Shown here piece by piece: positions 1,271 to 40,012 of a stretch of 64,000 bases of DNA. The stretch is from a virus: positions 1 through 64,000 of the IMG/VR virus record IMGVR_UViG_3300032236_001503; one strand, 5' to 3'. The notes below the pieces were generated by a model, which did no database searches, was not told the origin of the DNA, and was given only the letters and a program-made list of their open reading frames with translations. Each line of letters opens with the position of its first letter. The first letter of the stretch is position 1. The position numbers were made by a program, and so were the translations under genes.

Positions 1271-4200
1271 CTATAATTGATAGGTTTCTGTTGGTACATA
1301 ATACCAAGAGTTAGCATTACCCAATCCTAGTTGACCGTAGTTGTTCATACCACACATATATACTCTACCTTCTTGTGTTATTATTTGTAAGAATATTTGA
1401 TTTGAATAACCAACAATAGCAATACTTTGAGCATTTTGTTTAGGTAATTTTACTTGTGTTAATGTTGTTACATAAGGCTGTTCACTATCGAATGCCAAAC
1501 CACCCCAACCATTATATCCACATGTGAATACTCTTCCATCATTTGTTAATAGAGCAAATGCACCATCTGCTGCTGTGAAATCTTTAACCAATCCACTTGA
1601 CCAAGACCAATTTGGTACGGCTGCAACACCAGTTCTATATGTTGGATATACTGGATTGTGCATTGGAACAGGTGTTGGGTGAGCAGCCCCATCTGTTGTT
1701 CCGATACCTAATTCACCCCATGTATTTCGCCCCCAACTCCATAATTGACCATAACCATCTAATGCGTAACATGCGGTATGATCGCCTATTAAACTAAATG
1801 TTTCGAATTTTACAATATTACTAAGAGAAGTGATTTTTGTTGCATAATTTCTATTTGTTGTATCACCCAATCCTAATGCACCAATTCCATTATATCCAGT
1901 TGACCATAATGTTCCATCGTTACATAAGAAATATGTTGCACCAGTTCCTGATACGCCACCATTACTACCATAAACTGCTTTAACATTACCAATTGGTAAA
2001 TTCACACCACTCATTACGTTGCCGAATGTTGGTATATAAGAACCATATCCTGATGATCCTCTACCTAATTCACCATAATTAGTCCATCCACAACCCTGAA
2101 CTTGTCCATTATTAAATAGTATAAATAAACTTTGACTATTACTTGAGTCACCAGTATTTAATATTTGTTTTATTCCACTACTATTGGTCAATGATATCGG
2201 TATTGGTGTTGGGTGTGCAGAACCATCTGTTGAACCTATTCCAAGTTGTCCATAGCCATTATAACCCCATGTCCAAATTGTACCATCTGCTGTCATCGCA
2301 ATACATGTTATGTATGCTGCCTGATCTTCAGATTCATTTACTGCGAATTTAACAACCGCACGTTTTGGATTAATATTACCTTCTTGTCCACCGAAGTAAA
2401 CTTTATTCATGAATGTTTCATGTTCAGTGCTACCGTTTCCAAGATTTCCGTAATTGTTATAACCACTTGCCCATAAAACACCATTTGAATCTAATACATA
2501 TAAAGATAATCCTGCTTGCCAATATTCAACAGGTCTTCCATATGGAGTTGCCGAATCTGTTGGTGTTACTGATACTGGTGTGTATGAGTATATATCAGCA
2601 TAATATCCCATTGGAATGGTTCCATAATATGATCTACCTGCGCTAAACATTCTACCATCCCAATATAAAACAGCAGAAGTTTGTCCACCTCTTCCATACT
2701 TGTTTGGTAATGCCGAGTAATCAGCTAAAGCATATGCTATTGCACCAGATCCACTACCACCACTAATAGTTACATTGGGGTGTTGTAAATAACCTTTACC
2801 AGCGTTTGTTACGGTTATACTTGTAACAACTCCACCTGCAATATTCGCTACAGCAGTTGCTTGAATATTATTACCAATGATATCAGTTGGTGCATCTATT
2901 GTAACACTTGGTGGTGTTACATAACCACTTCCACCATTTCCCACGATGATATTTCTAACTGAACCGTTTACAACGGCTCTACTAACATTTGTAAGATCAC
3001 CTAATACATTAACGCTACCACTAATAACTACATTGTTAGTATAGATATTACCTGTTGTACTTAAATTATTAACATATGTAAAATTTGGTTGCGTTGCGGT
3101 AATATTTGAACCTAAAATAAAGGTATTAGTTTGATTATTTGTATTGTTACTAACACCACCTAAAATTGCTGAACAATTTCCGGATGCGATATTACTACTA
3201 CCACCAGCAACGGTTGACCAAGATCCAGATGCTGTATTGATAGCACCACCAGCAACGGTTGAATATATTCCCGAAGCAGTATTACTATTACCACCAGCAA
3301 CGGTTGAAATATTGCCATTAGCGATATTACCTGCTCCACCACCAACTGTTGATTCATATCCAGCTTGATTGTTACCACCACCAGCTATAGTTGATGCACG
3401 ACCTGATGCAGTATTACAAATACCACCGCCAACAGAAGAATATACACCGGATGCGGTATTGTTTAATCCACCATCAATATGTGAATAACATGCTGAAATT
3501 AAGTTACCAGCACCACCAGTGATTGATGAATCAACACCAGCCGAAGTGATTAAATTATTTTGTCCACCAAAAACCGATGAGAAGTTAGCACACGCACAAT
3601 TTCCACCATATACATATCTCAATGATGAAAGAGATGTGCCAGTTGTAAAGAAACTACCTGATGCAAGAACACCAGTTAAGTTTGAACCATTACCAATGTA
3701 ATTTCCATAAACGTAACCGCATGAACTTATATTATTAACATATGTAAAATTAGGTTGTCCTGCTGTGATATTTGAACCTAAAATAAATGTATTTGCTTGA
3801 TTATTTGTATTGTTGGCTGAACCAGCAGCTACGAATGAAACCAATCCATTTGTTGTATTACATGAACCACCAGCTACTGTGGAATATCTACCGGAAGCCG
3901 TGTTGCATGAACCACCGATTACAGTGGATGCAAAGTTACAAGCGTTATTAAATTGTCCACCTAAAACAGAAGCCGCAGTGCATGTTGCATTATTACAATA
4001 GCCTCCTCCGATATTTGAATATGCACCAGATGTTGTATTATATTGACCACCAGTAATGTTAGAATAACAATTACAAACATTGTTGCATCTTCCACCAACA
4101 ACACTTGAGAACGTACATGCTACTTGATTTGATGAACCACCTGTGATGCTGGAGCAATTAGCCGTTACGTTATTTGAAATACCACCAGCTACAACTGAAT

Positions 4201-5458
4201 AGTTTCCAGTTGCGGTATTATTATAACCACCAGTTATAACAGTATAACATGCTGATGCTGTGTTGTTTTTACCACCAACGACACTTGAGTAATTAGCAGA
4301 AGCGGTATTATTAACACCACCTAAAATATTCGCATAACCTGATATATTTGTATTGTTATTGGTTCCAATCGATATTGATTTATTGCCACTAATTTGACCA
4401 TTTACGGTAAGCGTTGCATTTGGAGTTGATGTATTAATACCAACATTTGCGTTTTGATCTATTGCAAATGCTGTGATTGATGGTGTATTACCAAATACTG
4501 AACTAATGTAATATTTGTTTTGTAATTCATCATAAGATGTAATGAAACCAGACATTGCGTATGTTCCGGTTCCATATTCACCAATAAAAAGAACAGGAGC
4601 TAAACCATCATTTGCAATACCATTTGTTAAATAAACATAACTTGTGGATAATACAGGTGTAAAAATATTACTTTGTGCGCTAATATTTCCTGCAACGGTT
4701 AAATTCGCATTTGGCTTTGATGTACCAATACCAACATAACCACTTGTTGAGCCATCAACATAAAAAGCAGTATTAGAATTAACAGTCGCTACGATAACTG
4801 GATACGGGCCAGTTTGCGTTAAATTTAATGTTGTTCTGGTTCCATTATTAATTATATCTAAACCTTGACTAGAGAGAACCGCTGTTGTATTTGTTATAAT
4901 TCCACCAGAAACATAGAAATTACCAGTTACACGCAAATTACCATTTGCATTGATGTCTCCAACGACATCCAATGGATAAACTGGGTGTGTATTACCAATA
5001 CCCACTTTACCACCCATGAATGTTGCTACTGGTACACCTGATGGTGATTGTACATATATACCATTGCCACCTGAAATCATACCAGTAACAGTTTGGTATC
5101 CTATTACCGTAGAATTACCACTTAATCCTAAATTTCCTGCTGCAAAAATATTACCATTTGTTACTAAATTGTTGATATTTAATGCACCATTTATATACTG
5201 ATCACCAGTTGAACTTATATTACCAACAACCGTTAATGCTGCATTTGGATGACCTGTACCAATACCAACATTACCACCCATGAATACGGCAGAATATGCA
5301 CTTGTGGGTGGAACTACAGCACTTAACCCACCCGATAAAACGAAATCACCATAAAAGGGAGCGTCAAAACTGGCTATCGGATCATGAGATGAATCAGGAT
5401 TTGTAGCTGATGCATAAGTGTGGTGATTCTGTCTATGATATTTGGAATTCGGTCTCAT
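1271..5458 (-). CDS. Tail fibre/adhesin: GNVGIGT repeats, Cys-containing YadA-head-like 14-aa repeats, C-terminal RCC1/BLIP-II beta-propeller
   Basis: GNVGIGTxxPxxxLTVxG motifs; NTASGxYSTVAGG repeats; RCC1-like units WTWGYNGYGQLGIG, WSWGRNTWGELGIG, MCGMNNYGQLGLG. Confidence 0.8.
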   Translation of the reverse strand: MRPNSKYHRQNHHTYASATNPDSSHDPIASFDAPFYGDFVLSGGLSAVVPPTSAYSAVFMGGNVGIGTGHPNAALTVVGNISSTGDQYINGALNINNLVTNGNIFAAGNLGLSGNSTVIGYQTVTGMISGGNGIYVQSPSGVPVATFMGGKVGIGNTHPVYPLDVVGDINANGNLRVTGNFYVSGGIITNTTAVLSSQGLDIINNGTRTTLNLTQTGPYPVIVATVNSNTAFYVDGSTSGYVGIGTSKPNANLTVAGNISAQSNIFTPVLSTSYVYLTNGIANDGLAPVLFIGEYGTGTYAMSGFITSYDELQNKYYISSVFGNTPSITAFAIDQNANVGINTSTPNATLTVNGQISGNKSISIGTNNNTNISGYANILGGVNNTASANYSSVVGGKNNTASACYTVITGGYNNTATGNYSVVAGGISNNVTANCSSITGGSSNQVACTFSSVVGGRCNNVCNCYSNITGGQYNTTSGAYSNIGGGYCNNATCTAASVLGGQFNNACNFASTVIGGSCNTASGRYSTVAGGSCNTTNGLVSFVAAGSANNTNNQANTFILGSNITAGQPNFTYVNNISSCGYVYGNYIGNGSNLTGVLASGSFFTTGTSLSSLRYVYGGNCACANFSSVFGGQNNLITSAGVDSSITGGAGNLISACYSHIDGGLNNTASGVYSSVGGGICNTASGRASTIAGGGNNQAGYESTVGGGAGNIANGNISTVAGGNSNTASGIYSTVAGGAINTASGSWSTVAGGSSNIASGNCSAILGGVSNNTNNQTNTFILGSNITATQPNFTYVNNLSTTGNIYTNNVVISGSVNVLGDLTNVSRAVVNGSVRNIIVGNGGSGYVTPPSVTIDAPTDIIGNNIQATAVANIAGGVVTSITVTNAGKGYLQHPNVTISGGSGSGAIAYALADYSALPNKYGRGGQTSAVLYWDGRMFSAGRSYYGTIPMGYYADIYSYTPVSVTPTDSATPYGRPVEYWQAGLSLYVLDSNGVLWASGYNNYGNLGNGSTEHETFMNKVYFGGQEGNINPKRAVVKFAVNESEDQAAYITCIAMTADGTIWTWGYNGYGQLGIGSTDGSAHPTPIPISLTNSSGIKQILNTGDSSNSQSLFILFNNGQVQGCGWTNYGELGRGSSGYGSYIPTFGNVMSGVNLPIGNVKAVYGSNGGVSGTGATYFLCNDGTLWSTGYNGIGALGLGDTTNRNYATKITSLSNIVKFETFSLIGDHTACYALDGYGQLWSWGRNTWGELGIGTTDGAAHPTPVPMHNPVYPTYRTGVAAVPNWSWSSGLVKDFTAADGAFALLTNDGRVFTCGYNGWGGLAFDSEQPYVTTLTQVKLPKQNAQSIAIVGYSNQIFLQIITQEGRVYMCGMNNYGQLGLGNANSWYYVPTETYQL

Positions 5459-5476
5459 TACTATTAATAATTATCC

Positions 5477-8400
5477 TTAAGAACTTGCATTAGGGTAAAA
5501 TGTATCATTACAACAATCTGATGATGCTTCACCCCATGTTTTTGTTAACTGTTGACTTGATGAAAATGAATATGAACTTGGGAAATTACTCTGTAATTCG
5601 GCATATGTTATTGGATTAATGTTACATATACGAATTACTGGTAATGTGAGATTGTAACACGACATGCCCTTCCAAGACCAACAGAATGGATTACTGCAAC
5701 CAGTATTAATACCAGAAAGGTTTCTGTTATCGGTAACTGTTAAATAACCTGCCAAGTAATTTAAAGCATTATATATTTTACCCAATTCTCTATTGAGAAC
5801 CTGTGGGATATTAAATTCATTTACGCCAACTTGAACATTTTCATTTTCTATATCATCAGCAAAAACTGGTCTACTTGAAACTAAAATTGGTGTTTTTGAA
5901 AAGTATTGAATTTGACCATAAGGTGTTGATTCCGTTACAATAACGAATTTTGAATTCATTGTATTTCTAAATGTTTTAATATTCTGAATCAATCGGGTAA
6001 ATGCACGATTGTAAACATTATCCATAGTAAATTCATCTCTTGATATTAGTATTTGATCCTTTGTCCAATATTGGTAAGGTAATCCTTCACCAACCTTAAA
6101 TAAGGTTACAATATCCTGACATTTTATAATACTATTTGATGTCGAAAATACTAGAGATTCACTATTTGAATATTTAGCGGAAGTAAAATTCAAAAATTCT
6201 ACACTTGGTATTTTATCAACATATGATATAAACGTTCCAGTTAATGTAAATTTGATTATTTCATTACTATATAAAACATACATGAAATTTCCATTTTTAT
6301 CAAAGATGATCTTAATTGGTTTTGCTTTAAGATTTATTCCATTTTGATCGGTTAATTGGAAACTGGTGATTAAATCACCCATAGTATCAAAAACATAAAT
6401 CTTATTACTGATTGTTAAAATATATGGAAATTCTGTCGTTGGGTGTACAGCAAAACATTCTGGATTATTTGTATAAATTGGTTTAATTGAAGTTCCCACA
6501 TTTATATCAAATTCTTCGTTATAATATGTATAAATCCAGTTTAAATCTTCAGTATAATGTTTTAAACAATGGTTTTGATAGTCTAAAACATAAACATTAT
6601 CATTTAAATAAATTAATTCTGTGGGAGAATTAAATTTATTTGGATCTTGTCTTCCACCATAGTTTCCAACCACTAATTGAATATTAATTTCGTTTATGTA
6701 ATCAAAACTTAAATTGAGTTTATATATTTTATTGTAATATTGATCTAAGACATATAAATTTTGACTCGGTTCATCGTAATCGATTGAAACCGGATTCACT
6801 AATAATTGATATACTTCATTTATATTATCAAAAAATATTTCCGTTGGATTTGCACCAGTTGTAAATGCTCTCGCACTCAAACCATCAAGTACAAATGTGT
6901 AGTAATCAGTTTGAACTAAATCTTTAATATTTGAAAATGATGGAGATACTGCATTTTGTGCAGAACTTACGGTTGCGTAATTTGGATGAACGTAATCACC
7001 TGATAAGAAATCCTGAGTATGCCACTGAATACCTCTGCCTACATTATTTTGACTAGTACCAAGCCACCCATAGAATAATGTTGGTGAATCAGTATTAATA
7101 GTTTGGGTATTGTATATTAAATATTCCAAATTATCATAGAGACGACTCATTGCGGTATTAAATATATCCGCATCAGCATATTCATTTGGTTGAATATCAA
7201 CTTGATCCACTGTCCAAGGAAGAGTTAAATATTCCTCGGTTAATAATCTTATTTTCGATTGATCATAAGTGGGCCATGTATTATAAACTGTAATCGCATG
7301 TGTATTAGGTAATTGAAAACTTAATGATGAACCATTGTTATAATTAACTTGATATGATAACGTGTATGTTCCCTCTGATTGATAAGAATGTTGTGTTATA
7401 TCATTGACTAAATGATAAGCTGATAAGCCATCTCCAAAATATATGTTATAAGAAGTTATTGCTACATTTGCTTCTGGTGTATTTTGTAGATAAGGTGTTT
7501 TGAATTGTATAAAAATATTATCGCCTGTTGTTGCGTAATAAGATGAAATATAAATTTCTGGCTTTACTGCTGTTGCATAAACAACAAATGATTCTGTTGC
7601 TGTTGTAAGTTTCTGTTCAATCACATTCCATGAATCATATGATCCAGTATAGCTAGTAGCTAAATTGTATGTAGTTGATGGGATGTAAGCTGAGAGTGTA
7701 GCCGATGCATTTAATAATAAATGATTTTGAACATAGTTATCAACCGTTAATGGTTGGGAACCATCTCCAATATTTAAGATAAACAAATCATAAAGACCAT
7801 TTACCATTGGCACATTTATCTGACTAACCCATCCACCCGAAAGCGACGATAATGAATATGTTACATATGAATTAGGGTTTTGTAATGCTCGTACAGGTGT
7901 ATTTGCTGTATTAGGAACAGTGAGTGTTTGTAAAACACCAACGAATATATTATTATCAAGATCGATTGATGTTACTGGTGTAAATTGTAAACCTAGTTGT
8001 GTTACTGTATTGTAATCAAAAACAACAGCTGTATCTACAGTTGAAAACTGTAATTGTAAAGTATCATAACCAACCAATTTAGGTGATTGATTAAATGCTG
8101 ATAATCCATTTTTTGAATATGTTAAATTATTAAAACTATTAGTGTTTGATGCAATTGAATAATTTCCTAGATATAAACCAGATGTAGAATTGTTTGAAGT
8201 TAACCCGATATAATTTAAAGAGTTAACTGATCTACGAGGGAAAAAATTATTGAATGCCGTTAGGTAAACAGTTAATCCTCTATTTGATGATAGATCGTTT
8301 ACATAAGGTAAATTAATTAAGTGATTATTGGTATTAAAAGTGGAAAATAATGATACCGATGGGTCATTTAAATTTGCATAACCGTATTGATATAACCCAC

Positions 8401-11400
8401 CTTTATTTGCTGAAACATAAAAATTCTGTGAATTTGTATTATTGTGAGCATAAGCAGTTGGTGCTTGTGATACTGTAAAATTATTATTATTAACAATAGT
8501 CAGATATCCACTATTTCCTTGATGCCAAGTATATGGTGGATATATTAAAAAGTTAGTTGGTGCAAAGAATTGTGCAGTTGGTAATGTGTATATAGTTTGT
8601 GTTGAAACTAAATTATGAGGAATTGTCCACCCAGCAATTGTTGCACTCAATGCACATAATGATACATTTGTTGATGTAACACTAGGTGAGGAGATTACAT
8701 AATTAAAGGTAGAAATACTACTGAGATTTGCTGATGTTGAACTCAGTGAATAATAATGCCCTGTATTATCCGTTATTACCCATTGAATAACAGGAGCAAC
8801 TAAATTGGATACGATTTCACCAGTTGAAAATTTAAAACTATTAAAATCTGTATTTGGTCTAGATAGTACATTATTCGCAGATGTATTTGCGATAAATGGT
8901 GAATTTTGAGGAGAATAAATTATATATTCTAATTGATAGAATTGATTTATATCATACCAAGAAATTTCCTGATTAACCACATTAGTTACAACACCATTGG
9001 TGACTGTTATTTGAACTGGAACCAATACGGGTCTAGGACCTAACCAAGGATATAATTGTATTATTGGTTGTGATTGGAAATATATGTTTACAACTTCTCC
9101 TGTAAAGTTATATGCTGTTCTAAAATATGTATTAAAAATGTTATCTGATGGATAATCTAAAACACTAATATTACTATTTCCTATGGTATATGGATTATTG
9201 TAATGCGATATCGCTGATACCGATAAATTGTGAATATTAAATGAGTTTAGAGATGAACTTAATTGTACATTTAAAACTATAGAGCTTAGATAATCAGAAA
9301 AATTAGTACTACCGTTACTATATGTATTTCCAATAAATGGTGTATTATTATAAAAAGCAGTAATTGGTAAATTAGTTGTTTTGTTATCGTAACTCCAAAC
9401 CCAATACATTGGAATGCCTGTTGGGATTTGATATGAATTTTGGTTGTATGGAACCGTTGCAGTTACGGTATATGATACAGTTTTTCCCAAAATTTGCGTA
9501 TTTGCGACACCAACATTAAATTTATTATGTGAGAGGATATTGAATAAATTTGGATTAGATGAAAGAGTTGCAGTTTGATTATATTTCTGAGAGGAAAGAG
9601 TTACGTTTACGGTGTTAGGACCGTATCCCGAAACCGAAACCGTCCAACTGTTACTATTAAATGGAATTGGTTGATTTATTGGAATTGCTGATAAAAATGT
9701 TCCATCTGGATTAACTGATTGTAAAGTGATATTACAATTTGGATTAACATTATTGGAATTAAAATTCCAACTTATTAAAGAATTACCTTGTAATGATGAA
9801 TTGGTATCACTTAATGTTAAAAGATTTTTTGATGGGAAATCTGGGTAAGATGTCAAGAATGAAGAATCTACTGTTATATTATCTGCTTCTTCATTTATTA
9901 CCTTTAATGATATAGGATAACCGAGTGCTGCCTTATATACATTATTTTGTCCTGATGCAAAATGTATAAATGTTGCATTATTTGATTCGGAAATATAATT
10001 AAAGATGCTACTACTTAAACGGGTTCTTAATGTTATATTAAAGGGTCCGTACGATGATAATGGATAAACTAAAAGGAATTGTGATCCTTCTGATGTTGGG
10101 ACAAACGGTGAATTTATAATATCATAAACCTGATCTAGATTAGATCCATAATAACAAAATATCTCATCTAATACATATGGTGTATTTTTTGGAAAATCAA
10201 TTACATTTAAAGAGATGAAATCATTTGGAGCATATGTTGGTAAGTCAACATTTAATATACCAAAATCACTAGCTAAACATGATGAAAGATAAACAAATTC
10301 GGTTTGTCCATATTGAGTAGCACCGGATGCGGTGTATTGTTTGGTTACACCACTTGATAAGTTAAATCTTAAACTATAAGTGTCACTTGGATTTGGGAAT
10401 GCATTATTGGTAAATGATGTTTTAAATGAATAATAATGCGGTGAATATGGAATAGTCCAAACCATAGTATCGAATGGTGTTGACCCATCACTAATCGGTA
10501 CGTTTAATGGAATTAAACCAGAATTACTTGTTACAAATGTAGTTGAGCCAACACTAGAAAGTGTATTGGATAAACTATTAAAATAGTAAGGAGATTCCGC
10601 TATATATTTTAATTTTAACGATTGACTTGCTGCGTTGAAATCAGGTTTACAATAAGGATATCTATTTCCGAAATTATCTTTATATGTAGCATTATTATAT
10701 CTGAAACTCGTAGGGGAATTACATGATAATGATATTGATAAAATACAATTGCTGAAATCTTGAAGTGGTGCGCTTGGGTTTATCGAACTCTGTGTTAATT
10801 GTAAAGTCTGATAATTTATTGAGTTTAAATTAAAATTATTAATGAATGATGAACGAAAATCATACCATAAAGTAGGTACTTCTTCTGGAAAGAACTGACC
10901 AAGTGGAATCATCTGATTCCATAGGTAGTTATAAGTTGTAATATTGTATTTTATATTAATTGAATTTGGTACAATATAAATGTTATTATCTTCCAATTGA
11001 ACATTGAAACTAAAAGGATTAAAATTAGGAGTATATGTTAAAACATTGTTTATTACGTTTTTTGATGCTGATAAACTATAAACCAAATTAACTGGTATAG
11101 AATTTCCTCTTATAGGATTAAAATATGGTTGATTGAATTTATAATTGGTATGTTTAACATAAGAATCGTGATCAACAACATTACTACCCACGAATAAAAC
11201 ATTAGTTGAAAGTAATACGGTTGAAGTTTGTAAATTAAACGTTCCGTTATTATTAGCTGAAAGTGAAATTGGTTTTAAAAATAATCTTTGTGGATACAAT
11301 AAATAAGCAGCATCAAATAGATTATTTGCAGTATTAGTTTGATTAATTGATGATAATACTGGATTTTGTGATGAATTATTATCAAATGAACTAATTGAAA

Positions 11401-11752
11401 GTATGAAATTGTTAAAAATATCTCCTATATTATAGGTTCTTAATGTTGATGGTTTCCAAGTAAAAGTGTTATTACTTGTTTTTGATGTGATTTGATAGGT
11501 ATCAGATTCTGGATCAACATAAGAATTTGCGTTTCCAAAATTAAAATCAATTTGATTATAAACATCAGTCACGTTGTTTATATCGTTGATCGGATTATCT
11601 ACAAATCTGAATAAGTTCAAATACTTCATTGAACTCAATCCTGCAACTTTACTGTTAAAGTATGTTGGTGTTATAAGATATTCTTCCATGGGCCAACTGC
11701 CGCTCATTGCTACAGTGTAATAACCATTTGAAGCTATGTTATAAGATGACAT
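5477..11752 (-). CDS. Very large virion structural protein (baseplate-associated; PKD-like and NHL/beta-propeller regions)
   Basis: 2091 aa, N/S/T-rich. PKD-like YNIYFGDG..HSYQSEGTYTLS; NHL-like NPVSIDYD..LYVLD and GGRQDPNKFNSPTELI..VYVLD. Lies in the baseplate gene run with a late box upstream. Confidence 0.6.
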   Translation of the reverse strand: MSSYNIASNGYYTVAMSGSWPMEEYLITPTYFNSKVAGLSSMKYLNLFRFVDNPINDINNVTDVYNQIDFNFGNANSYVDPESDTYQITSKTSNNTFTWKPSTLRTYNIGDIFNNFILSISSFDNNSSQNPVLSSINQTNTANNLFDAAYLLYPQRLFLKPISLSANNNGTFNLQTSTVLLSTNVLFVGSNVVDHDSYVKHTNYKFNQPYFNPIRGNSIPVNLVYSLSASKNVINNVLTYTPNFNPFSFNVQLEDNNIYIVPNSINIKYNITTYNYLWNQMIPLGQFFPEEVPTLWYDFRSSFINNFNLNSINYQTLQLTQSSINPSAPLQDFSNCILSISLSCNSPTSFRYNNATYKDNFGNRYPYCKPDFNAASQSLKLKYIAESPYYFNSLSNTLSSVGSTTFVTSNSGLIPLNVPISDGSTPFDTMVWTIPYSPHYYSFKTSFTNNAFPNPSDTYSLRFNLSSGVTKQYTASGATQYGQTEFVYLSSCLASDFGILNVDLPTYAPNDFISLNVIDFPKNTPYVLDEIFCYYGSNLDQVYDIINSPFVPTSEGSQFLLVYPLSSYGPFNITLRTRLSSSIFNYISESNNATFIHFASGQNNVYKAALGYPISLKVINEEADNITVDSSFLTSYPDFPSKNLLTLSDTNSSLQGNSLISWNFNSNNVNPNCNITLQSVNPDGTFLSAIPINQPIPFNSNSWTVSVSGYGPNTVNVTLSSQKYNQTATLSSNPNLFNILSHNKFNVGVANTQILGKTVSYTVTATVPYNQNSYQIPTGIPMYWVWSYDNKTTNLPITAFYNNTPFIGNTYSNGSTNFSDYLSSIVLNVQLSSSLNSFNIHNLSVSAISHYNNPYTIGNSNISVLDYPSDNIFNTYFRTAYNFTGEVVNIYFQSQPIIQLYPWLGPRPVLVPVQITVTNGVVTNVVNQEISWYDINQFYQLEYIIYSPQNSPFIANTSANNVLSRPNTDFNSFKFSTGEIVSNLVAPVIQWVITDNTGHYYSLSSTSANLSSISTFNYVISSPSVTSTNVSLCALSATIAGWTIPHNLVSTQTIYTLPTAQFFAPTNFLIYPPYTWHQGNSGYLTIVNNNNFTVSQAPTAYAHNNTNSQNFYVSANKGGLYQYGYANLNDPSVSLFSTFNTNNHLINLPYVNDLSSNRGLTVYLTAFNNFFPRRSVNSLNYIGLTSNNSTSGLYLGNYSIASNTNSFNNLTYSKNGLSAFNQSPKLVGYDTLQLQFSTVDTAVVFDYNTVTQLGLQFTPVTSIDLDNNIFVGVLQTLTVPNTANTPVRALQNPNSYVTYSLSSLSGGWVSQINVPMVNGLYDLFILNIGDGSQPLTVDNYVQNHLLLNASATLSAYIPSTTYNLATSYTGSYDSWNVIEQKLTTATESFVVYATAVKPEIYISSYYATTGDNIFIQFKTPYLQNTPEANVAITSYNIYFGDGLSAYHLVNDITQHSYQSEGTYTLSYQVNYNNGSSLSFQLPNTHAITVYNTWPTYDQSKIRLLTEEYLTLPWTVDQVDIQPNEYADADIFNTAMSRLYDNLEYLIYNTQTINTDSPTLFYGWLGTSQNNVGRGIQWHTQDFLSGDYVHPNYATVSSAQNAVSPSFSNIKDLVQTDYYTFVLDGLSARAFTTGANPTEIFFDNINEVYQLLVNPVSIDYDEPSQNLYVLDQYYNKIYKLNLSFDYINEINIQLVVGNYGGRQDPNKFNSPTELIYLNDNVYVLDYQNHCLKHYTEDLNWIYTYYNEEFDINVGTSIKPIYTNNPECFAVHPTTEFPYILTISNKIYVFDTMGDLITSFQLTDQNGINLKAKPIKIIFDKNGNFMYVLYSNEIIKFTLTGTFISYVDKIPSVEFLNFTSAKYSNSESLVFSTSNSIIKCQDIVTLFKVGEGLPYQYWTKDQILISRDEFTMDNVYNRAFTRLIQNIKTFRNTMNSKFVIVTESTPYGQIQYFSKTPILVSSRPVFADDIENENVQVGVNEFNIPQVLNRELGKIYNALNYLAGYLTVTDNRNLSGINTGCSNPFCWSWKGMSCYNLTLPVIRICNINPITYAELQSNFPSSYSFSSSQQLTKTWGEASSDCCNDTFYPNASS

Positions 11753-25073: not shown

Positions 25074-25520
25074 CTAATTCAAATGTTTTTCATTAAGAAT
25101 TAAAAAAGTATATTCATTTTTTTTACACCATTGACGAGCAGCATCCCATTTAGCCTGATTAACTGCCCATGTTACCTTCTCATAAAGCATCGTTGATTGT
25201 TTTTTCTTAGCAGTAATGGTTGGTGGTCTTGTTTGCTTCTCTGGTTTTACTTCAATTAATAACTTTTGAATTTTTCCGGTTCTATCTTTTAATGAGGCAA
25301 CAATATCGACAAAGTATTTATGAACTTTACCATCTTTGGGTGATTGATATGGTATAACAACGGATTCGCTTCCCCATGTTAATATGTTGACATTATTATC
25401 AAGGTAGCGGAATGTTTTTAGTTCTAATCCTGAACGATATATTATAGGTGATGAACCTCTATATTTTTCTGGGTTTTTGGGTTGGTAAATCCCTTGTATG
25501 TAATTGCGGTTTTTTTTCAT
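25074..25520 (-). CDS. gp4: Head completion protein (T4 gp4, TnsA-like nuclease fold)
   Basis: PKNPEKYRG, YRSGLE, WGSESVVIPY, HKYFVD, LIEVKP, NQAKWDAA. Confidence 0.9.
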   Translation of the reverse strand: MKKNRNYIQGIYQPKNPEKYRGSSPIIYRSGLELKTFRYLDNNVNILTWGSESVVIPYQSPKDGKVHKYFVDIVASLKDRTGKIQKLLIEVKPEKQTRPPTITAKKKQSTMLYEKVTWAVNQAKWDAARQWCKKNEYTFLILNEKHLN

Positions 25521-27364: not shown

Positions 27365-27399
27365 AAAAAAAGCCAGTGCTTTTAAACACTGGCTTTTTT
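27365..27399. terminator. Bidirectional rho-independent terminator
   Basis: AAAAAAAGCCAGTG-cttttaaa-CACTGGCTTTTTT. Confidence 0.9.
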
Positions 27400-27420: not shown

Positions 27421-27657
27421 TTAGAATGCCCAAGGGATACTTGAAAGAGCAAGAACTGCTGATGCTTGTGCTGTTGCTGTTTCATTTGTCCAATTTCCAG
27501 CGGCGGCATACTGTTCTGCCCCACTCCAAAGAACGATTGGACGAGGAACATTCTTTATTTTAGAAACGATCTTTTGCTCGTGAAAAATATCTCTTACGAA
27601 CTCAATCACTACTGAATCAAGGGTTACTGTTTGTGCTGTTTGTACGGTAATTTGCAT
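27421..27657 (-). CDS. Small late protein (possible fibre accessory/chaperone)
   Basis: 78 aa, own GATAAGTA box, directly downstream of the adhesin genes. Confidence 0.6.
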   Translation of the reverse strand: MQITVQTAQTVTLDSVVIEFVRDIFHEQKIVSKIKNVPRPIVLWSGAEQYAAAGNWTNETATAQASAVLALSSIPWAF

Positions 27658-27702: not shown

Positions 27703-30700
27703 TTATGGTGCAAAATCTTGATTTGTTCTATGGTATGCAATGCCTTGCCAATTTGTAACATTTGTTTCACTGTTGCTACTATATCCAACGGTTAAGATAG
27801 CACCACCTGCGCCTTGACCATATTGTATTCTTATTGGGTAGTATTGACCACCTACTAATGATACAGGGGAACTAAATGAACCTTGGGTTCCGTGAGAACC
27901 ACCATTATTTACATTACAATTACTTGTTGTGAATCCACTTACAGCATTATTACCGATCCAAAGATAACTTGCATCATCAGAGTAGGTAAAGAATGTAAAA
28001 TTATCTGTATATGGAGCCTTAAAGTAACCTAAGAATTCCCAACTATAATTGTTTAATGTTGGACCGTATCCCTGATTGTAATTGAAATTTCCATAATTGT
28101 CCAAGTTTTGGATAGTACCACTATTATCAACATAGAAATTAAAAAGTTCTGTTGCTACATAATTTTGAGTTTTAAAATTGGTATTAGCTGCAAAGAACGT
28201 TGGATCGTTGGACATCGGTCCTGCACTAAATGAAGCATCTGAATTTCCATTATCATAATACATCCAACCGTATAACCCATTTTGATATGTTGATACTGGA
28301 ATTGTTGATCTTATAATCAATTTAGGATATACTTTTCCGAAAAAAGGATATGTTAAACCTCTACCATTATTATAAAGTTGTGTGATTTCATCTTGTGATA
28401 GTGCTCTACTCCAAATTCCAGCCTCATCCATTAAACCATTTAGTCCATTTCCATAATTTGGTTCATAACCAAAGAACATTTTACCAGAAAGATCATAAGG
28501 ATAATTTTGAGTAGATCCTTGTTGTTGACCATTTATATAACATGTAGCATTTCCTCCTTGTCTAACAAGAACCATATGATACCATGTACCAACATTTAAA
28601 GAAGGATATCCAAAGGAAGCATCATCTGTAACATATCTAGATATTTGTAATCCGTTTTCATTATACCCAAAATACATACTACCGGGATTTTGTCCACAGA
28701 AGAAGAAATAGTTATAATTTGTATCATTAAAGTTTACCCAGCAAGAAAGTGTGAAATCTCCTGATAAATCATAGTTATTATTGTTATATAAATAAACACC
28801 ATTATCTTGGAATGATGCTGCTTGGTTTACAATGCCATTTACATAAGATGTACCACCACTATCGGTTAAATCATTTCCATTACCAGAACTATCGGTTCCA
28901 TTTCCATCAAATTTCCAATATGCCTTTAAATCAGAAGTTAAATTAAATGGATGTGATAATGCATTACCACTATTATATAATGATGTTACTTCACTAGGAG
29001 ATAATACTCTATTCCAAATTTCAAATTCATCAATTTGTCCATAGAATATACCTGCTTGTCCATTAATACCATCTGGAAACGCATCATAATGACCTAATGT
29101 ATATTGACCATTACTGGATAATATCGCACCACTATATGAAAATTGTGCTATTTGATTACCATCATAATATGCGGTGCATATGCCATTACCAAATGTAGCA
29201 ACATAATGATGCCATTCATTAGCAGTTGGTATTATGTTATTACCAAGATTAATAGCCCAATGATTTTCACTATCAGTATTAAATAGCATATTTAAAGTGC
29301 TATTTCCTTCGATATATAAGACATTTAGTTCATCATAATCATGCCCTGTTCCTTGCATCGGACCAATAAACTGATAACCAATATTAGTTTCATTTAATTT
29401 AAACCAAATAGAAAATGATTTTTGATTTGAACCAACATCGCAAACTCCTGCTGGTAAGGTTAACCATGAATTATTGCCATTAGAGATATCGGCAGATTTA
29501 TCATTAATACCCAAAGTGCTACCAACTGATCCATTGGTTTCGGTCATCTGTTGATTGCTAACCGAATCATATCTGGTTCCACTTATTTCATCCATCTTCC
29601 AGTATGCTTGCAATCCTGTTTGTAATGGTGAAACAATGGTTCCTGATAAGGTATTTCCACTAAATAAAAGCTTACCAATTGTCGATGAAGTATTATAATA
29701 TTTTGATTTGAAATTATTATAATTTGTTAAAATTTCATCTGCATTTAATCCACTTGTATAGAATAATACATCATTAATTAATCCAGAATGATAAAAACCA
29801 GAAGGTGTATATTGATCACCATGCATTCCACCAATCCAGAAATTTTCTGTATTATCTAAAGCACCACCAGTTGCAAATGATCCACCTTCGGGTCTTCCAT
29901 CTACATATAAAACTGCATTTGAACCATCATTTGAAACAACTATATTATGCCACTTTCCATCATTTATTTTCGTTGTGGTTGAAAGATAATAATAGTCATC
30001 ATAACCCGTAGTATTAATTCCACCCCACATTCCAATGTAACCATTATTTGTGGTAATACCAAAATCACCAGTATCAACACCAGCACTACCTTTACCAATT
30101 AAGGATGGTTGTTGCCAGTATAAGTCACTTGTTCCGCTTTCTGTAGTATTAACCCATAATGAAATAGTAAATGTTGTTAACCCTGCACCATCAATTGTAC
30201 TAACATAATTTGATGACCCATCAAATGAAAGAAATTTATTATTATAGGTTGGTGATGGAATTGATAATGATGCATTGTTACCAACATTACTTAAATCGTT
30301 CCAACTTAAACTACCATTAGTATAACTTGATGGATTTGTCGAATCTAACCAAAGAACGAGATTATGAGGAATAGGTTTATTGGTCTTATATGGGAGGGCT
30401 TTTCCACTATTATAAAGTCTAGTCACATCAGCTTGTGATAATGCCCTATTCCAAATACCGACTTCATCAAATATGTTTGTTAACCCTTGACCGGAGCCAT
30501 TACCAGTATATGCACCAAGCGTAAAGGTGGAATTGGTTGCTTGAATTGGTGCTGCATAAGTTGATGTATTACTTAATAGTACACCATCTAAATATTGGCA
30601 AGCAGTTCCATTATTGACAACCGTAACGATGTGATGCCATTGGTTTGCTGTTGGTGATACGTTTGAATCTTGATCAGACCAACTGCTATTATTATCTAAT

Positions 30701-33285
30701 AATATATATGATAATCCAGAATTACCCTCAATGTATACTGGAACCCAATTGTATGCATCTTGACCATAATTTTGGCATATAATCCATTGATAACCAACAT
30801 CAGTTTGATTTAAATAAACCCAAACTGATACACTCATTGCCCCACTACCAACATCAAATAATCCAGCAGGAAATTGTAGATAATCACTACCACTTGTTAA
30901 TTGTGCGCCATTACCCAATATACCTTGCACTAATGTAGGTGATCCAACTGGTGTTAAATTGTTACCATTTCCTGTTATGTCCGTCCAGTTGGAATCATTT
31001 AAATCATAATATGCTATAGCTCCAGCAAAAACATTGCTAGATGCATTATAAAGTTCAGATACTTCCGTTTGTGTCAGAGATCTATTATATGCATAAAAGG
31101 ATCTTACCTTTCCTTGCAAGTAACTAGTAGTACCCATATTAGTAACCGAAGGGTATCCAATATAATACGATAAGCCAGCACTATTATTATACGGAGCATT
31201 TCTGTTTATATTTGTTGTTCCGACTATTTCACCATTTATATATGCAGTTAAAGTTGTTCCATCATAAGTGAATCCAACAAGATACCATTGATTAAATGCT
31301 CTTGGTGTTGATGATACCTTTTGTGAATAAGATCCATCATTATACCATGTACAAAAATTTATGGTTCCATCTTCTTCTATTTCAATTTGTGAATCAGTCC
31401 AACCCGAATTATAATAACCATGTTCAGAAATAATCTGACCAGCTTGTTGAGGATAAACCCACACAAAAATAGATTCAGATGTTGAACTATAATATTGTCC
31501 TAAATCTGGAGTTGTGGATATATATGCATTTGAACCATCTAAAATTATTTCTCCATTGTTACCAAAATTACCATTATTATTATATGACCAATTTCCATTT
31601 AACGCAGCATTATTTGCATTTATTGAAAGATCATTTATCAATGCACCACTACCAGAATAACTTGATGAATTTGAAACATCAAAATAATATATTAATCCAT
31701 TAGTAGGAATATTAACAGAACCCGAACTATTAAAATATAATCCTCCGGTTGTAATACCCGATAGCGCATAAAGACTTAATGTACTAGGTGTTAAATCTAT
31801 TGTTGTGTTAACAGGATGACCAGCTGTATTTCTTAAATATGAAACATCAAACTGGGATAGTGGTGTTTTTATGAATCTATAATTTACATTACTAGTTTGA
31901 TCGTTTGATGTATTAAATGATAAAACTTCTGCTGGAGAATTAACATCATTTGAATTTAAATATCCTCTGTATTCTACAATTTCGGGAGATCCTGCAATCC
32001 AATCCGCTACGTGTGTAACGGTTCCATCTTGCTCTGGTACAATTGAATAACCTCCTTGATACGGAGATTGTACACCATTAGATCCTTGATCTGAAAATAT
32101 CGAAGATCTGTGATAGAGAGTTCCACCAATTGGATCAACTTCATAGATAACACAACGTGCATTGGGTGCTGCCCCACTCTCATCATCATAGCACGATATC
32201 ATGAAATTACTTGCATTATAAATAGGCTCTAAATTTGGTTGCCATCTTGCATCGTGTTGAGCACATGTTCCACTGTATTGATATCCGTTATAATATGGCT
32301 CGTCTTGTATATTATTGTAACGATTTTCAAACCAAACGGTATTATTTAATTGTCCGTTTTGATTATTACCTATATCTTGTAATCTAGTTCCATAATATGG
32401 TTGTTGACCCTGAATAACCCATAGTATATTTTTTGTTGCATATTCGATACAAACTAAAGTTGAAGTGTGTCTGAAACTACAAAGTACATCACCTGTTGTT
32501 GGATGAACATCAACAGAATTTAAATGGAATGTATCTCCATCATAACCATCATTATTAAAACAACTATCACTATAAAAATCCCAAACAACATCACCTGATG
32601 GAGTTTGTTCTTGTAGATAGAATCCATCGTTAGTATAACATTCGGTGATGACATTACCAAATCTACTTGGTGTTTTTATTTGTTGAACTTCATGGACATC
32701 CCAACCATAATAAACTGGATTATTATTTGTATCATTATGAACATAATGACCTGTATAGTTAATAATATCATTTTGAATTTGAGCAACACCTTTAACCGAA
32801 TAGTTATTTGAATTTAATGCCAACCAATTAGTGTCACAACCTTGGTGTAGACTGAATGCCGCACCTGTATCATCTGTTGCATACCAAATTGGTACTGCAT
32901 TTTTATCATATATGAAATAATATGTGCCATCTCCTCCATTGTTTCCGTGTGCTGTTAAATAGTAACCAGAAATATAATTTTCGGTTGCAGGATAAGTTAC
33001 CGTAAGTGGCATTACACTTTGTGGTAAGAATCTTATGTAATAAGAAGAACTAAGGTTGTCGGTTAAACATACTAAATCATTTGCATGAATTTGAGCAACT
33101 TGATTGTTGGTATATTGGTTTCCATTTACATGGATATTCCAATTGTTGAGTTGAGATCCTACACTTGTTGTGGTTCTTACACAATAATCAGTAATAGTAG
33201 ACGAAAACGTAGGATAAAGAGTATTACTACCAACCGTTGATGTAATACTAGAAATCGGTACTGAAACTGTTATATTGTATAGCAT
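27703..33285 (-). CDS. Virion adhesin: N-terminal aryl-sulfotransferase (ASST)-like domain, five LamG/ConA-like domains, C-terminal PA14/GLEYA domain
   Basis: ASST motifs DVHE, FHLNSVD, CSFRH, AQHDAR; LamG ends such as DEVGIWNRALSQ; PA14 motifs GYFKAP..YSDDASYLWIG..YYPIRIQYG. Confidence 0.8.
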   Translation of the reverse strand: MLYNITVSVPISSITSTVGSNTLYPTFSSTITDYCVRTTTSVGSQLNNWNIHVNGNQYTNNQVAQIHANDLVCLTDNLSSSYYIRFLPQSVMPLTVTYPATENYISGYYLTAHGNNGGDGTYYFIYDKNAVPIWYATDDTGAAFSLHQGCDTNWLALNSNNYSVKGVAQIQNDIINYTGHYVHNDTNNNPVYYGWDVHEVQQIKTPSRFGNVITECYTNDGFYLQEQTPSGDVVWDFYSDSCFNNDGYDGDTFHLNSVDVHPTTGDVLCSFRHTSTLVCIEYATKNILWVIQGQQPYYGTRLQDIGNNQNGQLNNTVWFENRYNNIQDEPYYNGYQYSGTCAQHDARWQPNLEPIYNASNFMISCYDDESGAAPNARCVIYEVDPIGGTLYHRSSIFSDQGSNGVQSPYQGGYSIVPEQDGTVTHVADWIAGSPEIVEYRGYLNSNDVNSPAEVLSFNTSNDQTSNVNYRFIKTPLSQFDVSYLRNTAGHPVNTTIDLTPSTLSLYALSGITTGGLYFNSSGSVNIPTNGLIYYFDVSNSSSYSGSGALINDLSINANNAALNGNWSYNNNGNFGNNGEIILDGSNAYISTTPDLGQYYSSTSESIFVWVYPQQAGQIISEHGYYNSGWTDSQIEIEEDGTINFCTWYNDGSYSQKVSSTPRAFNQWYLVGFTYDGTTLTAYINGEIVGTTNINRNAPYNNSAGLSYYIGYPSVTNMGTTSYLQGKVRSFYAYNRSLTQTEVSELYNASSNVFAGAIAYYDLNDSNWTDITGNGNNLTPVGSPTLVQGILGNGAQLTSGSDYLQFPAGLFDVGSGAMSVSVWVYLNQTDVGYQWIICQNYGQDAYNWVPVYIEGNSGLSYILLDNNSSWSDQDSNVSPTANQWHHIVTVVNNGTACQYLDGVLLSNTSTYAAPIQATNSTFTLGAYTGNGSGQGLTNIFDEVGIWNRALSQADVTRLYNSGKALPYKTNKPIPHNLVLWLDSTNPSSYTNGSLSWNDLSNVGNNASLSIPSPTYNNKFLSFDGSSNYVSTIDGAGLTTFTISLWVNTTESGTSDLYWQQPSLIGKGSAGVDTGDFGITTNNGYIGMWGGINTTGYDDYYYLSTTTKINDGKWHNIVVSNDGSNAVLYVDGRPEGGSFATGGALDNTENFWIGGMHGDQYTPSGFYHSGLINDVLFYTSGLNADEILTNYNNFKSKYYNTSSTIGKLLFSGNTLSGTIVSPLQTGLQAYWKMDEISGTRYDSVSNQQMTETNGSVGSTLGINDKSADISNGNNSWLTLPAGVCDVGSNQKSFSIWFKLNETNIGYQFIGPMQGTGHDYDELNVLYIEGNSTLNMLFNTDSENHWAINLGNNIIPTANEWHHYVATFGNGICTAYYDGNQIAQFSYSGAILSSNGQYTLGHYDAFPDGINGQAGIFYGQIDEFEIWNRVLSPSEVTSLYNSGNALSHPFNLTSDLKAYWKFDGNGTDSSGNGNDLTDSGGTSYVNGIVNQAASFQDNGVYLYNNNNYDLSGDFTLSCWVNFNDTNYNYFFFCGQNPGSMYFGYNENGLQISRYVTDDASFGYPSLNVGTWYHMVLVRQGGNATCYINGQQQGSTQNYPYDLSGKMFFGYEPNYGNGLNGLMDEAGIWSRALSQDEITQLYNNGRGLTYPFFGKVYPKLIIRSTIPVSTYQNGLYGWMYYDNGNSDASFSAGPMSNDPTFFAANTNFKTQNYVATELFNFYVDNSGTIQNLDNYGNFNYNQGYGPTLNNYSWEFLGYFKAPYTDNFTFFTYSDDASYLWIGNNAVSGFTTSNCNVNNGGSHGTQGSFSSPVSLVGGQYYPIRIQYGQGAGGAILTVGYSSNSETNVTNWQGIAYHRTNQDFAP

Positions 33286-33291
33286 TAATAC

Positions 33292-33299
33292 TATTTATA
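33292..33299 (-). promoter_or_regulatory. T4-type late promoter TATAAATA
   Basis: Exact T4 gp55 consensus, 6 nt before ATG 33285. Confidence 0.8.
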
Positions 33300-38249: not shown

Positions 38250-39188
38250 ATGGACAAATACGTTATCTTTCACATTGATGGTGGTTGTGGTAAAAACATA
38301 GTCGCTACTTCTGTTGTTAAATCAATCAAAGCCGCTTACCCTGAACACAAATTAATCGTAGTAACCGCATGGCCCGATGTCTTCGTTCATAATCCAAACA
38401 TTTACAGGGTTTATAGATTTGGAAATATTCCTTATTTTTATGATGATTACATTAATGGTAAGGATTCTGTCATTTTAAGATATGAACCCTATCATTCTGG
38501 TGATCTTCTTTATCGTAAAAAGTCATTGGCTGAAATTTGGTGTGATGTTTTCAATATACCTTGCGTAGATGTTAAGCCAGAAATAGTTTTAACCGAAAGA
38601 GAGCTTCTATTTGCTCAAAAACAGCTTCAAAAGGACGGACCCGTTCTCCTCATACAATCCTCTGGTGGAGCGGAACAACAAGGTCATCCTTATTCTTGGT
38701 CAAGAGACCTTCCTCCATCACTTGCACAGGAAATTGTTTATTCAGTTAGGGATAAATTCAGTAAAATCCTCCATGTTAGAAGAGAAAATCAACCAGCATT
38801 GGATGGAACCATTCATGTAAGTGATTCCTTTAGAAATCTCTTCTGTTATATTGCACTTTCAGATAAAATTCTTGGAATTGACTCGTTTGCTCAACATGCA
38901 GCTGCTGCTTTTGATAAAAAAGCAACGGTTGGTTGGATTTCTAACTCTCCTGTTGTTTTTGGACATAAAATTCATGACAATATTCTAGCAACTGGTGCAG
39001 AATCATTCCGTCATCGTATTGATTCTTACCTTGAAGAGGATGATTGGACAGGTGGAAGATTCCATGAGTGTCCTTATGACAATATTTCTAATCTTTTCAA
39101 TAAAGATCAGTTTATTGAATCGATTTTAGGTTCAAAAACCGATTTAACTTTTGAAATTGCCGATCAACCAACTATTAAATTTAACTAA
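38250..39188 (+). CDS. GT-B glycosyltransferase, GT9/heptosyltransferase-like
   Basis: N-terminal GGCGKNIVAT..AAYPEHKLIVVT..NPNI and C-terminal LGIDSFAQHAAAAFDKK match the GT9 pattern (GD..; G.DSG..H.A.A). Confidence 0.8.
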   Translation: MDKYVIFHIDGGCGKNIVATSVVKSIKAAYPEHKLIVVTAWPDVFVHNPNIYRVYRFGNIPYFYDDYINGKDSVILRYEPYHSGDLLYRKKSLAEIWCDVFNIPCVDVKPEIVLTERELLFAQKQLQKDGPVLLIQSSGGAEQQGHPYSWSRDLPPSLAQEIVYSVRDKFSKILHVRRENQPALDGTIHVSDSFRNLFCYIALSDKILGIDSFAQHAAAAFDKKATVGWISNSPVVFGHKIHDNILATGAESFRHRIDSYLEEDDWTGGRFHECPYDNISNLFNKDQFIESILGSKTDLTFEIADQPTIKFN

Positions 39189-40012
39189 TGAAAAACATAT
39201 TCTTTAATTCATCGATGCCTCGTAGTATGAGTACACTTTTGCAGTGTATTTTAAATCAACACCCTGAAATACAGGCTACACAAACCGATCCGGTTTTAGA
39301 ATATCTTTATGGTGCAAGAGTGAATTTCACCAATACACCAGAAGTTAAGGCAATGGATCAAGAACTTGCTTTAAAGACTTGGAGAGGTTTCTGTAAGGGT
39401 GGCTTAGAGGGATATGCAAATTCATATACTGATAAACCAAATCTTTGCATTAAGACTCGTGGTGGAACTATTCATTACAAGTGGTTTGAATCATTCATGC
39501 CTTATAAGCCAAAAATGATTTGTATGGTTAGAAATTTAAAAAGTGTTTTTTCTTCGATGGAAAAACTTTATAGAAAGAGTCAGGAATACCATCAGGAAAT
39601 CCAAAATCACTCAGAAATGAAAGGTACATCAACCGCAAAGAGAATTGATGCTTGGGTTGCTTCACCTCCTGTTGGTATGGCTCTTGAAAGACTTCAGCAA
39701 ACCTTCTTGGAGGGTATTAATAAGGAAGTTCTTTATGTAAGAGCAGAAGATTTAACAAGTTATCCACAAAGAGAAATGGATAAGGTTTATACCTATCTTG
39801 GTATAGAAGGATTTAAGCACGATTTTGATAATGTTGAACAAACAATCAAGGAAGATGATTCGGTTTATGGTTTAACCAAGGATCTTCATACAATCAAAAG
39901 AAAAGTTCAACCTTTAACTCCCGATTATACGGAAGTTTTAGGAAAACAAGTCTGTGATTGGATTGATAGCAATTTTGCTTGGTATCAAAAGGGATTTGGT
40001 TATACCAAATAA
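39188..40012 (+). CDS. PAPS-dependent sulfotransferase family protein
   Basis: 5'-PSB-like PRSMSTLL..ILNQHP; 3'-PB-like MICMVRNLKSVFSS; VRAEDLTSYP; start overlaps the GT9 stop (TAATG). Confidence 0.85.
   Translation: MKNIFFNSSMPRSMSTLLQCILNQHPEIQATQTDPVLEYLYGARVNFTNTPEVKAMDQELALKTWRGFCKGGLEGYANSYTDKPNLCIKTRGGTIHYKWFESFMPYKPKMICMVRNLKSVFSSMEKLYRKSQEYHQEIQNHSEMKGTSTAKRIDAWVASPPVGMALERLQQTFLEGINKEVLYVRAEDLTSYPQREMDKVYTYLGIEGFKHDFDNVEQTIKEDDSVYGLTKDLHTIKRKVQPLTPDYTEVLGKQVCDWIDSNFAWYQKGFGYTK

Follow-up and report, generated by a model that had tools for sequence, protein, structure and literature searches.

An aryl-sulfotransferase module fused to a lectin array in the structural gene cluster of a T4-like phage

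The first 64,000 nucleotides of the IMG/VR virus record IMGVR_UViG_3300032236_001503, which stems from an uncultured T4-like phage—in the following, the window—carry at positions 27703-33285 of the minus strand a single open reading frame (ORF), as judged by the ORF list and the translation, which encodes a protein of 1860 residues. Residues 1-495 of this protein form a complete aryl-sulfotransferase (ASST) module of the Cpz4-like branch, consisting of a β-sandwich, a β-propeller, and the full catalytic set. Behind it come five LamG_3 domains and a PA14/GLEYA domain. Among the ASSTs, the module falls into a clade specific to viruses, in which fusion to fiber or receptor-binding scaffolds of phages is a recurrent feature. 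It is probable that sulfate groups on a cell surface are read or rewritten by the virus.

Family, fold, and active site of the ASST module

ASSTs are known as bacterial periplasmic or secondary-metabolism enzymes, and their natural substrates are mostly unknown. An earlier note on this DNA had proposed an ASST domain fused to a lectin array, with the domain at positions 31815-32975, which corresponds to residues 104-490 and, hence, to the propeller. The hidden Markov model search suggested there bears this out: The N-terminal 490 residues score above the cut-offs of both ASST families of Pfam, with 38.3 bits for PF14269 (cut-off 27) and 30.5 bits for PF05935 (cut-off 24.2), and the five LamG_3 domains and the PA14/GLEYA domain are present. 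PF05935 is also matched by 40 of 40 aligned homologues. For comparison with the PDB, a profile was built from 40 homologues, and this profile matches Cpz4 (9KF6 and 9KF4) at an E-value of 1.5e-43 and AssT of Escherichia coli (3ELQ) at an E-value of 4e-19. The profile was required for this comparison, the phmmer search of the PDB with the single sequence having returned no match; a search of NCBIfam gave no match. Membership in the ASST family is well supported.

With the single sequence, AlphaFold gave a predicted local distance difference test (pLDDT) score of only 34, and an alignment of 107 sequences was used instead. The resulting AlphaFold2 model (pLDDT 90.9, predicted template-modeling score 0.91) features the anticipated β-propeller and, in addition, a sandwich. 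The latter occupies the N-terminal region with seven strands in residues 2-87 (33001-33285, minus strand as for all parts of this gene), and the propeller of approximately 26 strands forms the ASST-type catalytic domain of residues 100-495 (31801-32988), as identified by PF05935, PF14269, the model, and the fold matches to Cpz4 and AssT. The nearest structure in VIA alignments is the reaction intermediate of Cpz4, with a Z-score of 33.0 and an rmsd of 2.8 Å over 328 residues. AssT follows with a Z-score of 26.9 over approximately 340 residues, and its alignment begins within the sandwich, at model residue 28. Unrelated, generic propellers reach VIA Z-scores of at most 20.9, and the viral structures of BFVD returned generic propellers only, with template-modeling scores of 0.40 or less.

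The active-site residues of AssT have been named in the literature, with His436 as the sulfuryl carrier of a ping-pong mechanism (PMC13426309). All four motifs read from the sequence in the earlier note are present, namely DVHE (residues 196-199), FHLNSVD (253-259), CSFRH (269-273), and AQHDAR (342-347), and the catalytic set H198, H254, N256, R272, and H344 is intact, as had been claimed. In the alignment to 3ELQ, H198 of DVHE (32692-32694) corresponds to His252, H254 and N256 of FHLNSVD (32518-32526) to His356 and Asn358, and R272 of CSFRH (32470-32472) to Arg374. R272 lies 18 residues past H254; the same spacing is counted from H356 to R374 on the 3ELQ chain, as the note had it. H344 of AQHDARW (32254-32256) is the predicted sulfuryl-carrying nucleophile and the counterpart of His436: Q343–H344 aligns with the QH of the QHD motif of Cpz4, and the motif resembles Q435–H436 of AssT (TQH436TAW). 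In the homologue alignment, His occupies the position of H198 in 100 of 102 filled rows and that of H344 in 101 of 102; H254 and N256 are each kept in 103 of 104, and all four residues H198, H254, N256, and R272 are at least 96% conserved among filled rows. As for Thr501, a further active-site residue of AssT, T501–S502 aligns near G411–G412, the second column being Ser in 89 of 107 homologues and Gly here. Superposition of the model on Cpz4 and AssT suggests that the five catalytic residues would come together in one pocket.

Nearly all of the 107 homologues retain the H-H-N-R-H set, and so does every one of the 14 viral loci, at an identity to the query of only 30-44%. Within the viral clade, the representative P0043 (825 residues) has lost three of the five residues: H198, H254, and R272 are replaced by S, G, and G, so that the set reads S-G-N-G-H, with the fold kept; from these substitutions, it is likely a pseudo-enzyme variant. 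Catalytic loss therefore does occur, and retention of the set elsewhere is informative. Judged by its residues, the module studied here is likely catalytically competent.

Cpz4 of Streptomyces sp. MK730-62F2 (PDB 9KF4 and 9KF6) is an ASST of caprazamycin biosynthesis that prefers the sugar hydroxyls of glycosides (PMC13426309). It is both the best profile match and the best fold match of the phage module, and the two share the motifs DxH, HxNS, SxR, and QHD. The active site of Cpz4 is covered by short loops, a further likeness to the phage module, whereas the loops of a Salmonella ASST are longer; the three histidines of these two enzymes superpose (bioRxiv 10.64898/2026.10.08.757629). However, Cpz4 is a free-standing enzyme of 472 residues in a small-molecule pathway, and the identity in the structural alignment is only 18-19%, whereas the phage module is fused to lectin domains within a structural gene cluster and falls into a separate, virus-specific clade. 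AssT of E. coli CFT073 (PDB 3ELQ, 3ETS, and 3ETT) resembles the phage module in its architecture of a seven-stranded sandwich and a six-bladed propeller (PMC13426309). It differs in being a periplasmic homodimer of approximately 15% identity, with extra residues in the HMMER alignment to 3ELQ. The phage module, in turn, lacks a signal peptide: By a hydrophobicity heuristic, no signal-peptide-like segment was found at the N terminus of the protein.

A virus-specific clade and its fusion partners

A full HMMER scan of 1.84 billion representatives yielded 186 relatives, 49 of them with E-values below 1e-30, after which the score drops from 124 to 81 bits. In a FastTree tree computed on the propeller columns, 23 close sequences make up one side of a branch with a support (Shimodaira–Hasegawa-like) of 95. 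According to a rough hydrophobicity rule, signal-peptide-like N termini occur in none of 45 close proteins, i.e., those of the viral clade, versus 53 of 79 distant ones; the distant set therefore resembles exported cellular ASSTs. The module is carried by fourteen IMG/VR loci, and a search for related loci with the single protein as the query found none. A pattern scan of one genome per species across 185,579 species gave a single close copy, on a 2.1-kb contig of a metagenome-assembled genome, and, beyond this contig, two distant actinobacterial matches. Among 50,697 records of cultured phages, tblastn found no match at E-values up to 0.1, and no paper linking ASSTs with tail fibers was found in the literature collection searched.

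In most of the fourteen loci, the module constitutes the C-terminal 450-500 residues of a protein of 750-1640 residues. The N-terminal domains of these relatives include Mtd_N (L008, L012, and L014), BppL_N (L002 and L004), and PA14/GLEYA (L002), and the adjoining genes are tail-fiber, portal, and LamG structural genes. The nearest relative, P0004 of locus L003, has the same order as the 1860-residue protein—ASST first and LamG after—and its gene adjoins a portal gene. Glycan-acting catalytic modules are known from phage tailspikes and fibers, where endosialidases, O-antigen deacetylases or esterases, and depolymerases are built in. The relatives follow this design in having the ASST at the fiber tip behind Mtd_N or BppL_N, whereas the 1860-residue protein departs from it by carrying its enzyme at the N terminus. 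We know of no sulfuryl-transfer enzyme among the enzyme-bearing tailspikes and fibers of phages.

Two groups of relatives have further peculiarities. The closest representative, P0002 (1093 residues; ENA metagenome, longest contig 208 kb), features two complete tandem ASST modules (residues 1-510 and 529-995). Each has the catalytic set, with QHDARW changed to NHDARW in the second. The loci L007, L010, L011, and L013 lie on contigs with a GC content of 23-25% in IMG/VR bins labeled GVMAG (giant viruses). Here, the ASST module forms the C-terminal half of proteins of 817-846 residues, the N-terminal 370 residues have no Pfam match, and the neighboring genes encode IMPDH, an RNase H1 with a Cauli_VI domain, an RNB exonuclease, and aspartate-semialdehyde dehydrogenase.

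In the 1860-residue protein, the partner of the module is the lectin array, in which Laminin_G_3 matches five stretches with 313 bits in Pfam. LamG_3 domain 1 comprises approximately residues 530-750 (31036-31698), with edges taken from the C-terminal motif YNRSLTQTEV, and domain 2, placed by Pfam and this motif, approximately residues 755-965 (30391-31023). Domain 3 (approximately residues 975-1200; 29686-30363) also matches Laminin_G_1 and Laminin_G_2, domain 4 (approximately residues 1225-1445; 28951-29613) also matches Pentaxin, and domain 5 spans approximately residues 1450-1650 (28336-28938). The C-terminal carbohydrate-binding domain of the PA14/GLEYA type occupies residues 1725-1839 (27769-28113) and scores 48.7 bits with PF07691 and 68.1 bits with PF10528. 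Domain 1 additionally matches PF22925 (TS_C, the C-terminal lectin domain of trans-sialidases) with 40.4 bits at a cut-off of 27. Trypanosomal and bacterial trans-sialidases or sialidases consist of a propeller catalytic domain followed by a lectin domain of the LamG/ConA type and work by a ping-pong mechanism via a covalent intermediate. The 1860-residue protein shares with them the propeller-then-lectin design. However, the two catalytic domains come from unrelated families and transfer different groups, which makes the likeness an analogy of design and not homology of the catalytic domain.

Genomic setting and late-expression signals

The parent record has a length of 163 kb and is 73% complete according to the CheckV estimate. 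The virus, a distant T4-like myovirus, encodes the major capsid protein gp23 (E-value 4e-91), the portal gp20 (E-value 2e-97), a gp21-type prohead protease, the sheath stabilizer gp15, the clamp loader gp44, and gp25-like and gp6-like baseplate proteins. Its gp23 is only approximately 34% identical to that of cyanomyoviruses, and psbA, a clue to the host, was not found in the phage. The ASST–LamG gene sits in the structural module among gp15, gp20, gp21, and gp23, more precisely between gp15 and the portal region, and the LamG part of its product matches PHROG entries for virion structural proteins. Together with the fiber anchors found in relatives, this position and these matches make display on the virion probable.

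The gene had been described as standing under an exact late promoter. The octamer TATAAATA, a T4-late-type box, is indeed present at 33292-33299 of the minus strand. Its end lies 6 nt upstream of the ATG, and no Shine–Dalgarno sequence intervenes; gp15, gp20, gp21, and the gp6-like gene are preceded by a degenerate box at this distance. As an enriched late promoter, however, the exact octamer had to be rejected: The window contains 8 copies versus 15.8 expected. What stands is late-type expression signaled by a degenerate positional motif. Of 48 gene starts, 18 have the looser box [AC]TAA[AGT]TA between −28 and −5, versus 0.5 expected for random positions and 2.7 for shuffled upstream regions, statistics that are generous since the motif was picked after the data had been seen. 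In 12 genes, including the ASST–LamG gene, gp15, the gp20 portal, the gp6-like gene, and the large fibers, the looser box ends 5-7 nt before the ATG without a Shine–Dalgarno sequence between. Examples among these 12 are the boxes at 33292-33299 and upstream of 27338, 38177, 18603, 11752, and 35744. If the box acts like the −10 element of T4 late promoters, the late mRNAs of these genes would be leaderless or nearly so. No RNA run was listed among the sequencing runs that hold this DNA, and the only DNA run may be the source sample.

Several features of the surroundings complete the picture of this region. An ORF of 78 residues (27421-27657, minus strand) separates the ASST–LamG gene from gp15, and a strong terminator-like hairpin of 15 pairs with a T run (27366-27399, minus strand) lies 3′ of both the ASST–LamG gene and this ORF, just before gp15. 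Between the neck genes and the gp21 protease, the minus strand carries at 25074-25520 a TnsA-like or endonuclease I-like nuclease gene (PF08722, 69 bits), which may be a homing-type insertion. Two more giant proteins belong to the structural module, both encoded on the minus strand: one of 1395 residues with an RCC1-repeat propeller (1271-5458) and one of 2091 residues with weak PKD and NHL matches (5477-11752).

Sulfur genes and the proposed function

We favor, with confidence about evenly balanced, a virion-borne and cofactor-free sulfate-editing head that is held on a host glycan by the lectin array. The 1860-residue protein would be carried on the virion, its LamG and PA14 modules would hold it on a glycan of the host surface, and the ASST head would perform ping-pong sulfuryl chemistry independent of 3′-phosphoadenosine 5′-phosphosulfate (PAPS). 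H344 would accept the sulfuryl group from a sulfate ester, with H198, H254, N256, and R272 holding this group, and would then hand it on, either to an acceptor hydroxyl or to water. Through trans-sulfation or desulfation, the head would thus recognize and edit sulfate esters or sugar hydroxyls of the host envelope, much as the esterase and depolymerase heads of other phage fibers modify receptors; as a cofactor-free enzyme, it would be of the type able to work outside cells. That the surface acted on is a sulfated one is our inference. Several observations weigh against this reading. In the 1860-residue protein, the module is N-terminal, and Pfam recognizes no virion-anchor domain that would locate it on the particle. 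ASSTs require activated, typically aryl, sulfate donors, and sugar sulfates are poor donors. Finally, the HMMER alignment to 3ELQ is shifted by approximately 10 residues at the loop of His436, so that the equivalence of H344 is drawn from the motif and the alignment with Cpz4.

The head might instead only bind, as a lectin-like receptor-binding domain in whose old active site sulfate or another anion of the host glycan is accommodated without turnover. Such a role would suit the place of the module in most relatives, at the C-terminal tip behind Mtd_N or BppL_N, where receptor-binding heads sit; it would also suit P0043, which lacks three catalytic residues and keeps the fold, and extracellular aryl-sulfate donors are not evident. 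Nevertheless, we regard it as unlikely: Binding would seldom need a full catalytic set, and the nucleophilic His and the four sulfuryl-holding residues persist throughout the viral loci at low overall identity as well as in nearly all homologues. The absence of a recognizable N-terminal anchor also leaves room for a soluble late protein outside the virion, either active in or on the infected cell or set free at lysis. Such a protein might remodel the envelope against superinfection or, like receptor-destroying enzymes, keep progeny off debris, and the gene's own promoter-like box and the terminator-like hairpin downstream would be in keeping with this. We consider this the least probable of the explanations, because the gene is part of the structural module, with gp15 on one side and the portal region on the other, the LamG array matches virion structural proteins of PHROG, and the relatives are fused to fiber anchors.

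A further explanation is bound to the other sulfur genes of the phage. A second, unrelated sulfotransferase had been claimed within approximately 7 kb, and a gene of the PAPS type, with a GT9-like gene as its neighbor, was found at a distance of 5.9 kb from that for the ASST. It encodes 274 residues on the plus strand at 39188-40012 and matches Sulfotransfer_3 (PF13469, 45 bits), Sulfotransfer_1 (PF00685, 32 bits), and phrog_27463; its matches to tyrosylprotein sulfotransferases were nonsignificant (E-values of 0.4-0.8) and were not used as evidence. Outside the window, the phage carries a gene for adenosine 5′-phosphosulfate (APS) kinase (CysC; PF01583, 180.5 bits) at G000:C1:120388-121029 of the minus strand (L019:8389-9030), among early and nucleotide-metabolism genes and near those for ribonucleotide reductase subunits. 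This kinase could raise the supply of PAPS for the PAPS-type sulfotransferase of the phage; ATP sulfurylase was not found in the phage. The set recalls caprazamycin biosynthesis, where Cpz4 acts downstream of the PAPS-dependent Cpz8 (PMC4257720): Here, too, a PAPS-dependent sulfotransferase and an ASST are encoded together, and APS kinase is also in the genome. Unlike in that relay, no type III polyketide synthase (PF02797) for a phenolic carrier was matched, nor any other phenol-making gene, in the 73%-complete record.

The phage might accordingly run an intracellular two-step relay that decorates its own particle: APS kinase would raise PAPS, the PAPS-type enzyme would make an aryl sulfate, and the ASST would sulfate fiber glycans as in the Cpz8/Cpz4 pair. 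The presence of all three enzymes in one genome is consistent with such a relay, as is the nearest solved relative of the module being Cpz4, which works after Cpz8 (PMC4257720) and sulfates sugar hydroxyls (PMC13426309). However, neither a PAPS-type sulfotransferase, in a search run with a positive control, nor an APS kinase above the cut-off was found in five further virus records with an ASST, of which two are 97-100% complete; the partnership is therefore not general. That no phenol-making gene was found in the 73%-complete record adds to this, and the fusion to a lectin array suggests an external glycan as the workplace, so that the relay appears quite unlikely to us. A wider version is a complete sulfation line of the phage, in which APS kinase provides PAPS, the PAPS-type enzyme loads an aryl carrier (possibly tyrosine or a phenol), and the virion-linked ASST sulfates either the fiber glycans of the phage or the host receptor. 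This version we hold to be very unlikely; if true, viruses would have their own equivalent of the Cpz8/Cpz4 relay, and the ASST would be the first enzyme to edit sulfate on a virus particle.

With a virus-specific clade of ASSTs in fiber and lectin proteins, sulfate esters would join the acetyl, sialyl, and glycosidic bonds in the range of surface chemistry open to reading or editing by phages. Such a clade would also suggest that phages of aquatic microbes use sulfated glycans as receptors. Because the modules fold in the cytoplasm, with neither a signal peptide nor PAPS, they may also serve as cofactor-free sulfation catalysts.

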